DNA from: a virus
Lineage: Duplodnaviria; Caudoviricetes
Reading direction: 5' to 3' (one strand)
Virus record (IMG/VR): IMGVR_UViG_3300043429_000320
Coordinates: 1 to 30,946 of that record
Length of the DNA: 30,946 nt
Shown: piece by piece, positions 4,507 to 30,946 of the stretch
Layout of the letters: each line of letters starts with the position of its first letter
Position numbering within the stretch: position 1 is the stretch's first letter
Position numbers and translations under genes: made by a program
Notes under the pieces: generated by a model
Database searches by the model: none
What the model was told of the DNA's origin: nothing
The model's input: only the letters and a program-made list of their open reading frames with translations

Positions 4507-5052
4507 TCAGAAATTCACGAAGCCGAAGCCGCCAAACTTGCCGAGCTCGTGCCAGTTCCGCTTTTTCGCGTACAGACCATCACCATCACGCTCGACTGAT
4601 AGTTCATCGGATGGTTCAGGCGATGTGTTCCCCTCGACTGTGTATACGCCCCATTCCTCGACTCTGGTCACGATGCCGATGTGAGCGATGCGAGACAGTG
4701 CCGAGAAGTAGAACAGCGCGAGATCTCCACGCCGTGGACGCTTCGTGGTCGTACCGTCGCGGATGTGCTGGACAGGTAACCACAGGCTGTTTGCCTTGAA
4801 CCATCTCGACCAGTCTGGACAATATGCAGAACGAGGAAAAGTCTCGTCGTACACGATGCCGAGCTGTGTGGCTGCTTGCTTGTGGCGGAAGCGAACGTGT
4901 GCCGCACACCACGGAGATCCAGCAGGGACAGGCGGTTTGCAGGATGCTTGATACGCTTCGACTGCCTTGCCACGATTCTCTCCGACTTCCTGAACGCCAA
5001 TATTCGCGATGGCCAGTTCAGTCGATAACAGTGCTATTCGGCGTTCATCCAT
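4507..5052 (-). CDS. CHAP-domain endolysin (peptidoglycan amidase/peptidase)
   Basis: IGVQEVGENRG...PWCAAHV (catalytic Cys) ... GDLALF ... HIGIV (His) ... TVEGNT; AGGAG RBS. Confidence 0.9.
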   Translation of the reverse strand: MDERRIALLSTELAIANIGVQEVGENRGKAVEAYQASCKPPVPAGSPWCAAHVRFRHKQAATQLGIVYDETFPRSAYCPDWSRWFKANSLWLPVQHIRDGTTTKRPRRGDLALFYFSALSRIAHIGIVTRVEEWGVYTVEGNTSPEPSDELSVERDGDGLYAKKRNWHELGKFGGFGFVNF

Positions 5053-5096
5053 GATGTATACTCCTAACGTCCAACCGGGTTCTAAACCTAATCCTC

Positions 5097-5133
5097 ACGC
5101 CTCCAGACCCCTTCCTGGAGGCGTTTCCTTTTT
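5097..5133 (+). terminator. Intrinsic terminator oriented on the + strand (antisense to the late arm)
   Basis: Perfect 10-bp stem ACGCCTCCAG/CTGGAGGCGT, 8-nt loop, then TTCCTTTTT. Confidence 0.7.
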
Positions 5134-5134
5134 C

Positions 5135-5235
5135 AGCAGTCAAGCATTCCTTGACAACTCACAAGGATTCCTTGTCACATCAACTTGTAAGAAAACCTTA
5201 CAAGTTCACCATTTTGTTGACGTCACCAAAAAGGT
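5135..5235. repeat. Array of four abutting palindromes
   Basis: GTCAAG-N5-CTTGAC (5139-5155); ACAAG-N5-CTTGT (5161-5175); AACTTGTAAG-N5-CTTACAAGTT (5182-5206); 28-bp ACCATTTTGTTGAC/GTCACCAAAAAGGT with 2 mispairs (5208-5235). Confidence 0.9.
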
Positions 5236-8168
5236 CAGGAGAACGTCTCAGCATCGTCGCTTGATGACACGATGGTGATTCCATTCGTCGTGTGTGTATA
5301 AATCAGATACACGACTCCCAGGCGCCAGTAGCACGCGATCTCATCATCCGAAACATTACCTGTTACCACGTTCGACGCAGATGTGATGACGTTACCCATC
5401 GGGTCACGCTTCACGCGCTGGATGTTCGACGAGCTCGTGCGGAAGAAGATATATTCCATTCCATTCGGGGAGACACAGACTGTTCCGTGTGCCCCGGTCC
5501 CAATCGTTGTAGCCACTGATACTGTGTTCCCTTCGTCGTCGGTTGTGTACCGCTTCACTTCACCGCTGGTCGTATCCACGATGATGATAAGACTCATCGC
5601 ACCACTGTGCTTCTGATACGCCAGGCTGAGACATTCCGCGTTCGTGATCGGTGTCGTGACCTCGTCCCAGTTGGTTCCGTTATGTGCTCGCGAGTGGTAC
5701 AGCTTCACGCCACCAGATGCAGTGATGACACCATAGGTCGCTTGCTGTGCCGGTGATACGTCCGCAGCGGTACAGTTTCCCGCGAGAGTTTCTTCACGGA
5801 ATACAGCTCGCTGACGCTTCGCGGAGTACATCGGATTGACACCGACACTCGATGCTCCGATGACGATGGAGTGATTCGCTTTGCCGAGTCCGTATGGTGA
5901 GCCGGTCTGGTAGTTTCCAAGCGCATCGAATGTCGAGTCTGTTCCCCTGGACGAGGAATCGCTCGAGAGCTGAAGCGTCACGGTTCCGGATGTCGCCGGG
6001 TCTCCTGACGTATCGAAAACAATTCCATGCGCCGGTCCACGAAGGATGGCGCCGAATGGAAGGTACAGCGCTGAGTCTGTCCCGCCATTGACATCGAACG
6101 GGTCGTACAGATCAGGAATAAAGTCGCCATTGATGGAGTCAAACAGAGTCTGCGCCGTGATGGTGCCTGTTCCGATCTCGAAGCCATACGCGAAGTCAGT
6201 TCCAGATGTTGCGTTCGGCGTTGCGAGGATTCCACCGCCATAAAGCCATGTGCTGATACCAGTTCCACCATTCAGGAAACAGTCGCGCAATGGCGGTTGT
6301 GACACGCTACAGGTACCACTGCCCGGGTACGCCACACTGTTCGTTGCAGTCCAGCCAGGATGTCGAACAATGCTGTCGTCGGACCCGTTGACTTGACCAG
6401 CGAGGTCGCTGATCGAGAGCGGCGTGACACTGTATGTCGTGACACCAGTCGCACCGCCGACAGTCTTCTGCCACCAGTAGTCGCTCTCCTCTTCGTCGCG
6501 CCCATCGTTCTTCTGTTGCCAGAAGCGTCGTGAATAGTAATACGTGGTTGTGTCGACTTCGGCGACAATCGCTGGCGTGATGCGTTCGTGCTCGTATCCC
6601 AGACCACTCGGAACATAGTGGCTGTTCGTGAAGCCGTTGGTCGTGTCCTGCTTCAGTGTGGTGGTGCCGAGGTCAATCGCCCCTGTAGCGATGCGAAGAC
6701 GTTGGCATGACGTAACACCCCAATATGCCGAATCGACGCTCTCTGAGCCAGCGTACGAACTGCTAGAGGTATTCTTGCGCGGGTATGGATTGTCCTTCCC
6801 ATCAGTAAGCGGAAGCGCAGACACAGACCATGCATCAGGACTGCACAGGTCGATGGTCACTGTCTGATACGACGTCGTTGCAGCTGTGATGTTCCACGTT
6901 TTTGTGTTGCCATGGTAGTCGGTTATGACGAAGGTCCCTGCCACACCTGTCCCGCTTTGCGCCTTGATTTGGATGTCAAGATATCGGTATCCGGACATTC
7001 CTTCATAGGGAGCGAACAGTCGGTCGTTCCCTGTGCCTGCGATGCTTCGTGTCGTGGCATACGCGAGTGACCAGCCATTGAAGCGGAATCCACGGAACAT
7101 GCACCTGGTCTCGCTTGATGCTTCACCGACAGCTGTAAGTGATGCGCCAGTGATCGCGACTGACACACTGACTGGCACACTATCAAGTGCAGTGGTTTTT
7201 GAATCATTCGTGCTATTCTTGACGATATCGCTGACCGCTGAATAAAGATAGAAGGTGTCAGACGATGAGATTGAACCAGTACCAGTAACGTCCCTGTATC
7301 CAGTCGTCTCAGCATCGAATCCAGTGATTCGACAAGTGAGGCTGTCAGGATATGAAGCAGACCAGGCACGGATGCGACCAGCCAGAGCACATACAGCCGC
7401 TATGCGAGCATAACTGGTTAGGTCAACTGTAATGACGTCATATGTTGCTGCTGACATTGTGACTGACCAGTTTGTCGCTGACTGTCCGCCAAACGTATGA
7501 CTATGTGATGCGGCATAAGGTGCCACGCCATTGACCAGGTAATTTGTAATTGCTGCCGATGCTGTTGCTTCGTCCTGACATACACCAGCGAGCGATGCGC
7601 CAAAGATGTAGGTCATCCTATGACGAGCTCCAGATGCATATGCGCCGGTTGCTGTGCACGCGGTGCCACCAATAGTCAAGGTACATGATGGCGTGCTTCC
7701 ATACCTTGACAACTCATACCACTCGTATGATGTAGATGGTGGGAACACAGTCGGAGCCGTCGAGATTGAATATGCTGTCTCAGTAATGTTCCAAAGTTTG
7801 TCGGTGCCAACAGTACACGACCATGATCCTGTAAGTGTGGCGGCAACATCGACCCACTCAGTGGCGAAACTCTCAGTACCACTAGCGACAGTTTTGACAA
7901 CAGTTGTCGAATGACCATAACCATCATTCGATGTCATAGTCAGGTATATAAACCACTGCCAGTTTGGCGCGTGTGGTGTGCTCGTCCATGACCATGTCCA
8001 TGTACTGTAAGCAGCAGTGTGTGTGGCTGCGCCTCCGATGCTTCCATCCACATAACCGAGTTTTAGTGCTACAAAAGGAACCAGATCATTTGGATAGACG
8101 AGGATGTTGTAGCTCAGCGATAGATCACATTGAGCGGTAGCACTTCGTGTGCCATCGATGTAGGCCAT
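5235..8168 (-). CDS. Large minor tail / tail-tip protein (977 aa), possible C-terminal beta-propeller
   Basis: Last gene of the tail module; Thr/Ser/Gly-rich beta-type composition; BNR/Asp-box-like SRAHNGTNW, TTDDEGNT and SSDDAETF near the C-terminus. Confidence 0.7.
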   Translation of the reverse strand: MAYIDGTRSATAQCDLSLSYNILVYPNDLVPFVALKLGYVDGSIGGAATHTAAYSTWTWSWTSTPHAPNWQWFIYLTMTSNDGYGHSTTVVKTVASGTESFATEWVDVAATLTGSWSCTVGTDKLWNITETAYSISTAPTVFPPSTSYEWYELSRYGSTPSCTLTIGGTACTATGAYASGARHRMTYIFGASLAGVCQDEATASAAITNYLVNGVAPYAASHSHTFGGQSATNWSVTMSAATYDVITVDLTSYARIAAVCALAGRIRAWSASYPDSLTCRITGFDAETTGYRDVTGTGSISSSDTFYLYSAVSDIVKNSTNDSKTTALDSVPVSVSVAITGASLTAVGEASSETRCMFRGFRFNGWSLAYATTRSIAGTGNDRLFAPYEGMSGYRYLDIQIKAQSGTGVAGTFVITDYHGNTKTWNITAATTSYQTVTIDLCSPDAWSVSALPLTDGKDNPYPRKNTSSSSYAGSESVDSAYWGVTSCQRLRIATGAIDLGTTTLKQDTTNGFTNSHYVPSGLGYEHERITPAIVAEVDTTTYYYSRRFWQQKNDGRDEEESDYWWQKTVGGATGVTTYSVTPLSISDLAGQVNGSDDSIVRHPGWTATNSVAYPGSGTCSVSQPPLRDCFLNGGTGISTWLYGGGILATPNATSGTDFAYGFEIGTGTITAQTLFDSINGDFIPDLYDPFDVNGGTDSALYLPFGAILRGPAHGIVFDTSGDPATSGTVTLQLSSDSSSRGTDSTFDALGNYQTGSPYGLGKANHSIVIGASSVGVNPMYSAKRQRAVFREETLAGNCTAADVSPAQQATYGVITASGGVKLYHSRAHNGTNWDEVTTPITNAECLSLAYQKHSGAMSLIIIVDTTSGEVKRYTTDDEGNTVSVATTIGTGAHGTVCVSPNGMEYIFFRTSSSNIQRVKRDPMGNVITSASNVVTGNVSDDEIACYWRLGVVYLIYTHTTNGITIVSSSDDAETFS

Positions 8169-29405: not shown

Positions 29406-29657
29406 ATGTCCAAGCAGGTCCCAACACATTACCGTAACCAACCGATTCAGCCCATCGAGATAATCGACGCGTATGGCCTCGACTTCAAGCGTGGCAATGC
29501 TCTCAAATACCTTCTCCGCGCAGGTTCTAAACATGGCGAGGAAAAGACCGACGACCTACAAAAAGCCATCTGGTATCTCGTCTGTGAACTTCACGGCATC
29601 GAGCTCGCAGACGAAATCAATCAGCATCTGTCAGCTCATCCCGCTTTGGATGCCTAG
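29406..29657 (+). CDS. DUF3310-family protein (T7 gp1.7 nucleotide-kinase-related), opposite to the operon
   Basis: PTHY....IQPIEII...LDFKRGNALKYLLRAGSK......DLQKAIWYL is the full family signature. Confidence 0.88.
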   Translation: MSKQVPTHYRNQPIQPIEIIDAYGLDFKRGNALKYLLRAGSKHGEEKTDDLQKAIWYLVCELHGIELADEINQHLSAHPALDA

Positions 29658-29993
29658 ATACTGGCATGTGGCTTCGACTGCTTCCTCCCACGAGTAAGCA
29701 ACGAACCAGAGGTAAGCATCACCGACAGACTCACGGAAGGCGATTTGTCCTGGCGTGAGTTTGTTTTTGCCTGCCTTCATCTCGATCCACATTCCACAGT
29801 GCTGTCCCATCTGGACTGGAATGAAGATGTCCCACACGCCAGCCTTGAGTCCTTCGGACTTCAGTCGACCGGCAGTCGCCTTGCTTCGGTATCCACCGTT
29901 TGGAATGGCGTGGATAGTGTCGAGGCGTGGATGTCGTCCGCCCATCACTCGGCACCAGTTGAAATAAGCAATCTGATGTTCTGATTCGTTCAA
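29631..29993 (-). CDS. VRR-NUC domain nuclease
   Basis: ESEHQ ... HAIPNGG.R....GRLKSEGLKAGVWD ... WIEMK...NKLTPGQ; TTG start with TTGA overlap. Confidence 0.9.
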   Translation of the reverse strand: MNESEHQIAYFNWCRVMGGRHPRLDTIHAIPNGGYRSKATAGRLKSEGLKAGVWDIFIPVQMGQHCGMWIEMKAGKNKLTPGQIAFRESVGDAYLWFVAYSWEEAVEATCQYLGIQSGMS

Positions 29994-30898
29994 AGTTCTA
30001 TTCCTTCCAAAGTCTCAAAGAGCACTTGCGCTTCCGGAAGTCCGCGAAGTTTTTCGAGCGCCCTCGACTGTATCTGCCTGATGCGCTCGCGTGAATATCC
30101 GACCAGGAGACCGACGTCTTCGAGCGAGCGTCCATCGATGAGACCATCGAATCCGAAGCGCAGCCGGATGCACGCCATCTCGCGGTCCGTCAGATGTTCC
30201 ATCAGTTTGTACAGCTGCGCGTAGAGTGCTTCGCGGTCGAGAGCATCACCAGGCTGAGGAGTATCGGTGGCGACGTACTCACTGAAACTCTGACCGTATG
30301 CGTTCGGTTCATCGAGTGACTTGATATCGACACGCTCCATCGAGGTGATGTCAGACAGATACTGGACGTCGAGAGTTTTGAGCTGATGGCGGAGATACTT
30401 CGGAAACTCATCGATGCGCGACTGTATCCACTCGAGCAGTTCCGGCATCGATGGCGATTCACCGTGTTTCAGGACGTATGCCTGGCGCGAGATGCGGATG
30501 TGAGTAATCTTCGCGATGACGTGCGATGGTAGTCGAATCTCGCGACCACGATTCTCGACTCCTCGACCGATGGCCTGTCGAATCCAGTTCGTGGCATAGG
30601 TCGAGAAGCGATAGCCCTTGTTCGGGTCATACCGCTGAATCGCGTGGTGAAGTCCGAGCATTCCGTCGGTCATCATGTCCTCGTGAGTGCATCCACGGCC
30701 CTTGAAGCGTTTCGCGATGATGGAGATCAGGCGCTGGTTGTACGTCATCAGTTCTTCGGTCGCACGCTTGATGTCTCGCTCGGTCCCTGCCTGCACCATG
30801 CGACCTAAGAAAAACTCCTCCTGTGGAAGGAGGAGTTCTTGACCACTGGCGAGTCTACTGGAGCGGTATTGGCTCCATGTGTCGATGCGCTTAGTCAC
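29990..30898 (-). CDS. Phage-encoded RNA polymerase sigma70-family factor (RpoD/RpoS-like regions 1.2-4)
   Basis: LLLPQEEFFL (1.2); NQRLISIIAKRF, DMMTDGMLGLHHAIQRYDPNKGYRFSTYATNWIRQAI (2); SLDEP (3); LTDREMACIRLRFG...SLEDVG....SRERIRQIQSRALEKLR (4). Confidence 0.95.
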   Translation of the reverse strand: MTKRIDTWSQYRSSRLASGQELLLPQEEFFLGRMVQAGTERDIKRATEELMTYNQRLISIIAKRFKGRGCTHEDMMTDGMLGLHHAIQRYDPNKGYRFSTYATNWIRQAIGRGVENRGREIRLPSHVIAKITHIRISRQAYVLKHGESPSMPELLEWIQSRIDEFPKYLRHQLKTLDVQYLSDITSMERVDIKSLDEPNAYGQSFSEYVATDTPQPGDALDREALYAQLYKLMEHLTDREMACIRLRFGFDGLIDGRSLEDVGLLVGYSRERIRQIQSRALEKLRGLPEAQVLFETLEGIEL

Positions 30899-30946
30899 GA
30901 GCGGCCATCGCCTGATGTGCTTTGTGGTCTGCGCTGTTTGGCGTAT
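30819..30946. repeat. Terminal direct repeat, right copy
   Basis: Matches 1-128 with one mismatch (30945 A versus 127 G). Confidence 0.95.

Follow-up and report, generated by a model that had tools for sequence, protein, structure and literature searches.

In a tailed phage, the 101 nt between the stop codon of a tail-block gene (5235) and a terminator-like hairpin (5097–5133) consist of four abutting palindromes of the types that lie within the coding sequences of rhuM and dinD genes. We propose, at a probability of about 0.6, that this array is a DNA mimic, which would offer the likely sites of three RhuM types and of DinD and keep these candidate defence proteins bound and inactive. The window (the whole stretch of DNA analysed, 30,946 nt) is a tailed-phage genome encoding an HK97-type capsid and a terminase, and is probably complete, because its first 100 nt recur near its end. 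Near-identical DNA occurs in freshwater sequencing runs; it was assembled as one piece in two of the four public runs examined, which, given the near-identity, may be where this DNA came from, and RNA runs contained only small shares. The phage encodes an RpoD-like sigma factor (29990–30946), which is widespread among its relatives. Sigma factor homologs, cluster names and a terminase search yielded no clue to the host, and plasmids and phages gave only weak, partial BLAST matches to the array.

Three of the units are RhuM-type sites with the core AAG-N5-CTT. P1 (5135–5159, centre 5147) has the inner arm TCAAG and 8 of 10 arm pairs. P2 (5156–5180, centre 5168), with ACAAG and 7 of 10 pairs, overlaps P1 by 4 nt and is, like P1, imperfect, and P3 (5182–5206, centre 5194), with GTAAG, is perfect at 10 of 10. 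P4 (5208–5235) is a 28-bp even palindrome of the DinD type with 12 of 14 pairs, and the upstream tail gene has its stop codon among the last bases of this unit. That gene (5235–8168, minus strand, 977 aa) is labelled by position as the last of the tail block; the downstream flank (4507–5052, minus strand) has a CHAP-like motif and presumably encodes an endolysin. Neither matched an NCBIfam model. A preliminary description of this DNA had reported four palindromes between these genes, three of the AAG-N5-CTT kind and one of another, and all were found in that place. Four such palindromes per 110 nt occurred in none of 1000 dinucleotide shuffles and in none of 561 half-overlapping window tiles, and the only RhuM-type sites in the 31-kb genome are the three inside the array.

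The codon strings VKHSLTT, STCKKTLQV and HFVDVTKKV, given for the palindromes in the same description, are correct, but they stand in different frames; P2 reads as THKDSLSH. The region had also been said to hold no credible ORF. An 89-aa ORF (5009–5278) crosses the array, and we rejected it as a gene because its frame is broken in close relatives by a 1-nt deletion in P4. As had been stated, the units have no U-tails. Intrinsic terminators were accordingly rejected as an account of them: the T-run is absent from all units, and the one present belongs to the separate plus-strand hairpin that adjoins at 5097–5133, flanking the insertion point and outside the array. This hairpin is kept, with paired changes, in relatives both with and without the array, and its T-run faces the plus strand, antisense to the tail and lysis genes.

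Pattern searches of genome collections returned about 2500 stretches for P1, about 1700 for P3 and about 560 for P4, compared with about 70, 9 and 0 expected by arithmetic with even base use. In samples of these matches, 79 of 121 sites (P1) and 103 of 120 (P3) lay in frame in one RhuM protein cluster each, and 106 of 126 (P4) in frame within one protein cluster. All 20 scanned members of the P1 and P3 clusters matched Virulence_RhuM (PF13310), two of them as Fic fusions; in the P4 cluster, all 10 members matched Bro-N and all six tested passed the DinD model NF008573. Two rhuM genes (L812 and L815) agree with P2 in the left arm as well as in the arm mismatch, and its counterpart in one relative (L055) shows no arm mismatches to a gene site. 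The TKKV variant of P4 is carried by a dinD gene (L943). Arm differences to gene sites amount to one base for P1, two for P2 and none for P3, and sites matching rhuM gene arms were absent from 20 shuffles of the window. The suspected resemblance to RhuM- and DinD-family motifs is thus borne out by strong in-frame enrichment, and the proposed motif scan of genomes led to rhuM or dinD coding sequences for P1, P3 and P4; P2 was identified later from the two rhuM genes. Gene-free sites made up 40 of 121, 14 of 120 and 15 of 124 of those in cellular genomes, prophage and host being pooled. Several DinD-type palindromes lie within a few kilobases in each of three Bacteroidota contigs.

To avoid selecting for the palindrome, RhuM domains were gathered by protein search. 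The first set, for which the 80 loci most similar to a single query were taken from each collection, comprised 240 loci with 208 unique domains; a second added 95 unique domains from 106 loci in four phyla. Every rhuM gene examined carries a palindrome of 25–27 bp about 60 codons into the domain, and at this codon none of the 303 domains has fewer than 8 of 10 arm pairs; in the first 208 the mean was 9.6, and synonymous recoding lowered it to 6.4. Arm sequences are diverse, with 44 inner hexamers, and follow the residues of a predicted recognition helix that sits 20 codons upstream of the palindrome. The types of P1 (TCAAG), P2 (ACAAG) and P3 (GTAAG) go with the helices KQN(I/V)SLH, QQN(I/V)SLH and xN(I/V)TxH, and the types TAAAG, TCAAC, TTGCA, TCCGG and TTCGA go with KQNIGQH, KQNISKH, KSTISRH, VRTINEH and xxTINYH, respectively. 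Where a genome had more than one fetched rhuM copy (three genomes), each copy was of a different type. The C-terminal partners of the N-terminal domain vary and include Fic.

The correspondence was quantified in 301 domains, two having been dropped for a shifted register. Of 93 held-out genes tested, 65 had a residue pair that occurred in the training set, and in 62 of these 65 residues 40 and 44 correctly predicted bases −5 to −3; a baseline that used the nearest relative, judged on the remainder of the domain, was correct in 24 of 93. With one wing subtype used for training and the other for testing, 84 of 89 and 158 of 162 were correct. Residues 39 and 43 predicted the next bases more weakly (56 of 71; across subtypes, 46 of 70 and 104 of 172). 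Four of six pair rules passed sign tests on independent pairs (median p, 0.008–0.03), and the remaining two, with too few pairs, were not significant. Mutual information reached 1.0–1.6 bits at residues 37, 38, 40, 41 and 44 for the inner bases and at 39, 40 and 43 for the next bases; it fell to 0.04 at residue 42 and did not exceed 0.4 across the variable residues 46–58 that separate the helix from the site, a pattern that speaks against simple block linkage. The predicted recognition helix of RhuM predicts the inner bases of the palindrome, a relationship that is new here. In an AlphaFold model the domain is a winged helix with this helix at 39–51, and the palindrome's codons fall in the first wing strand; the nearest folds, all weak, are pSK1 Par, Mbp1 and Xis-type domains (Z 4–6). 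Arm mismatches among 3010 pairs (36 G-T, 25 A-C and 54 other) reveal no RNA wobble bias. From these sequence patterns, each RhuM variant is likely to read a double-stranded site within its own gene. A second cognate site 150–600 nt upstream of rhuM was found at 0 of 280 loci, and we rejected the ordinary promoter operator of an autoregulated factor on this ground. A literature search that missed most subscription papers returned no description of the palindromes, the helix code or the phage copies.

A search with the putative endolysin gave 74 viral loci, 59 of which span the whole junction. Thirty-three of these relatives have no unit, 5 have one, 8 three and 13 four, so the variation that had been set as a test is present; P3 is the unit most often kept (25 of 26 arrays). 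In the array-less relatives the stop codon of the tail gene abuts the T-run of the hairpin directly, and array presence switches at least five times on the endolysin tree (57 rows, two distant rows being excluded). The array is an accessory cassette that is gained and lost, and any benefit that it brings is conditional, given the 33 relatives without it. One copy per site type is the rule in arrays. P1 alternates between TCAAG and TAAAG, both arms changing together, and two relatives with 70% endolysin identity have a further unit type, TTCCA-N3-TGGAA. The spacers of the units vary freely, and some are flipped (CATTC/GAATG and GATTT/AAATC). Programmed inversion was discarded as an explanation of these flips: they need no invertase, and in the accessible part of one paper RhuM appears only as a gene next to type I systems and to invertible hsdS (PMC9881135). 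On their own, spacer flips do not indicate a switch.

In four complete relatives, sites of these kinds are missing from the whole genome, and an essential cis-element for packaging or replication was rejected on these grounds. Two other relatives carry extra RhuM-type sites outside the array, one at position 6131 (G721) and two at positions 29428 and 30817 (G727). It had also been claimed that the phage encodes neither RhuM nor DinD, and this holds: neither gene was found in the window, and RhuM was found in none of 29 relatives. The array as a site for a phage-encoded RhuM or DinD was rejected accordingly.

Gene-free copies of the sites recur widely in other viruses. The P3 pattern matched about 260 viral stretches, and 112 of the 119 returned lie outside rhuM (48 flank clusters); 97 of 114 viral matches to the DinD pattern (52 flank clusters) and 72 of 120 to the TTGCA pattern (46 flank clusters) were likewise gene-free. 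Two shuffled-palindrome controls gave one viral match each, versus about 260 and 160 for the real patterns. RhuM is encoded in only 1 of 48 virus records with gene-free sites, many of these records being fragments. The viral units are trimmed to the site, and no trace of flanking gene sequence remains. Most viral sites are single; among 51 P3 clusters 7, and among 52 DinD clusters 2, have a further RhuM-type site within 200 nt, and 56 kb of flank farther away contained none. Mixed RhuM or RhuM-plus-DinD arrays are present in five viruses unrelated to the phage. Gene-free copies are a virus-wide pattern, with about 50 unrelated virus groups for each site type.

Enterobacterial phages allow the site type to be compared with that of E. 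coli rhuM. Among 5426 genomes, 843 have a TCCGG-type gene next to selC, and 3 have a rhuM of the GTAAG type. One viral segment, identified by a GTAAG site, has a TCCGG site adjoining it and matches 525 phage records, mostly from Escherichia and Salmonella and often in EaA, Ea22 or DUF551 genes. Among six enterobacterial records hand-picked from the 40 listed of these 525, five have a TCCGG-type site, one arm of which is identical or near-identical to that of the E. coli gene, and two also have a GTAAG site; the GTAAG match arises by construction, but the TCCGG match does not. Shuffles contained no TCCGG-type site in 178,780 nt. Unlike the array, the sites in these six records are located within genes. 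At five loci the adjacent GTAAG and TCCGG sites fall within the codons of a variable gene, in a frame unlike that of rhuM. An imperfect GTAAG-type site also lies in the Jerseyvirus helicase-primase gene (L1088:1501-1527; about 56 Salmonella phage records), one arm being equal to that of an enterobacterial rhuM. A short pseudogene remnant of the 3′ part of rhuM is present near setC at one of our loci (L1091) and in about 3600 E. coli genomes, including E. coli B, the strain background of a preprint's PDC-S05 test (10.1101/2024.09.26.614923).

Both gene families that hold the original sites are PADLOC candidates, with RhuM matching PDC-S05 and PDC-S23 and DinD matching PDC-S13. E. coli DinD is an SOS-induced modulator of RecA. 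In four phyla sampled, the genomes with RhuM matches numbered 59 of 151, 65 of 201, 29 of 151 and 10 of 201. The evidence for a defence role of RhuM comes from one PDC-S05 gene with a RhuM domain in one preprint, which in its accessible part reports plating of T7 and T5 reduced about 1000-fold and that of T4 about 10-fold (10.1101/2024.09.26.614923). In the available text of another paper, RhuM is put forward as a toxin domain of restriction-modification islands (PMC3710099). Palindromes, binding sites and phage mimics go unmentioned in the accessible parts of these two sources and of PMC9881135; 'decoy immunity', as far as its available text goes, is a host-side protein system and unrelated (10.1101/2023.04.06.535777).

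In comparisons with solved structures, the C-terminal part of RhuM had no effector homolog and no catalytic fold (best Z, 7.2). In a full-length model (md473d79c098c, L800:1324-2307) the C-terminal part is helical and cannot be recognised as any enzyme fold, and the model's best Foldseek match, weak overall (E 8e-4, TM 0.24–0.33), is Deinococcus DdrC, a DNA-binding dimer composed of a winged helix and a helical bundle. Such weak Foldseek and VIA matches of RhuM show neither likeness nor novelty.

T4, T5 and T7 degrade host DNA. If the array is a mimic, RhuM would sit on the palindrome in its own gene, probably as a dimer to judge from the symmetry of the palindrome, and the bound state would be the quiet one; the intragenic site would work like a DNA antitoxin inseparable from its gene. 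If an infection destroyed the host DNA or stripped it, RhuM would be released and the antiviral response would begin, and cognate sites on the phage, multiplying with replication, would bind the freed protein again. One site would be needed per specificity type, hence a mixed array whose units are swapped among relatives. A benefit would require either that the off state lies on DNA or that the site is a mark in cis, because titrating a mere repressor would raise defence and harm the phage. More tentatively, we extend this reading to the families as a whole: RhuM, and probably DinD, may be one-gene sentinels with a codon-embedded DNA off-switch, a helix-to-base code and dozens of non-cross-reacting types, in which loss of the host site on infection releases the protein and which phages from freshwater lakes to P22- and lambda-like coliphages counter with matching sites, whether single, within genes or in mixed arrays.

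Four other explanations were weighed against the mimic, and we consider each of them unlikely. The sites might be self-marks in cis, so that DNA bearing them is spared or helped by RhuM or DinD with no release-and-kill step, much as Chi marks DNA for RecBCD. The helix code and the phage copies fit such a mark equally well, the rule of one copy per type suits it better than a sponge, and the best Foldseek match of full-length RhuM is a DNA-binding dimer; yet a single 25-bp gene site is a thin mark for a whole chromosome, and the RhuM-Fic fusions suggest use as a sensor and effector. Slightly less likely again is that the phage borrows host RhuM and DinD as regulators, without neutralising them, for instance to set a roadblock between the tail and lysis genes or to maintain its genome. 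In favour of this, the array lies next to a terminator-like hairpin, with the tail block on one side and the putative endolysin on the other. Other viruses, however, place the sites very differently, 26 of 51 clusters lying outside any long ORF and 25 of 51 under one; the 33 of 59 relatives without sites keep the same spacer, and a single roadblock needs no several types side by side.

We judge it improbable that the units are neutral relics or selfish palindromes derived from rhuM and dinD DNA and perfected by template switching. Hairpin errors would produce spacer flips such as those seen, and the presence of the array is patchy on the endolysin tree, but the trimming of the units to the site, their spread over about 50 unrelated virus groups per type when control palindromes do not recur, and the concerted shift of both P1 arms between two gene types all argue against it. 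Least probable of all is that a third factor, such as a recombinase or a general hairpin binder, reads the palindromes in genes and phage, or that they serve as RNA hairpins. The array does fold stably as RNA (z = −4.5), and rhuM N-terminal domains are fused to differing C-terminal domains; the arm sequence nevertheless tracks the helix residues of the protein itself, G-U bias is absent, and Rfam had no match anywhere in the window. The last two observations bear also on the ordinary RNA leader that had been named as a refuting alternative, and nothing points to one.

Among known systems, the array appears to work most like the pseudo-ToxI mimic of PhiTE, yet it is not a member of that class and probably acts as DNA. 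According to the accessible text on PhiTE, pseudo-ToxI repeats counter ToxIN and are likewise a non-coding copy of a defence system's nucleic-acid element in a phage without the system, and they were gained by expansion or recombination, as the array may have been; they differ in being an expressed RNA antitoxin of homologous tandem repeats (PMC3475682). The units of the array are, by comparison, of different types from two families, likely function as double-stranded DNA and have their originals within the codons of a protein. Intragenic sites are familiar from lac O2, an auxiliary operator within lacZ, and in LacI-type families the helix-turn-helix residues covary with operator bases, as the RhuM helix residues do with the bases of a palindrome inside coding sequence. 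Unlike lac O2, the only site found for RhuM lies in the gene of its own presumed binder, with none upstream (0 of 280), and viruses lacking the gene carry copies. Chi (read by RecBCD) and parS-type centromere sites are, similarly, short DNA marks read by a host protein, and the RhuM winged helix resembles the pSK1 Par domain (8csh, Z 5.8–6.7); RhuM sites, in contrast, are of many types, each paired with one gene variant and one per gene. REP and BIME elements are short extragenic palindromes grouped in mosaics, as in the array, but its sites are not multi-copy, no transposase is nearby and the originals are intragenic. Membership in that class, with its many dispersed copies, was rejected: the array is the only instance here, and 10 relatives have 0–4 sites.

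RhuM is a widespread family that carries the label 'virulence protein' and has no known mechanism. The helix code assigns each rhuM gene a predicted DNA target, making its function directly testable, and helix-site pairs would supply orthogonal DNA binders from nature. Should the phage copies be mimics, they would constitute a protein-free and RNA-free form of counter-defence that gene-centred screens overlook, and would account for a variable stretch in the EaA/DUF551 genes of well-studied enterobacterial phages; in that case, the site content of a phage could help to predict the hosts that it meets.
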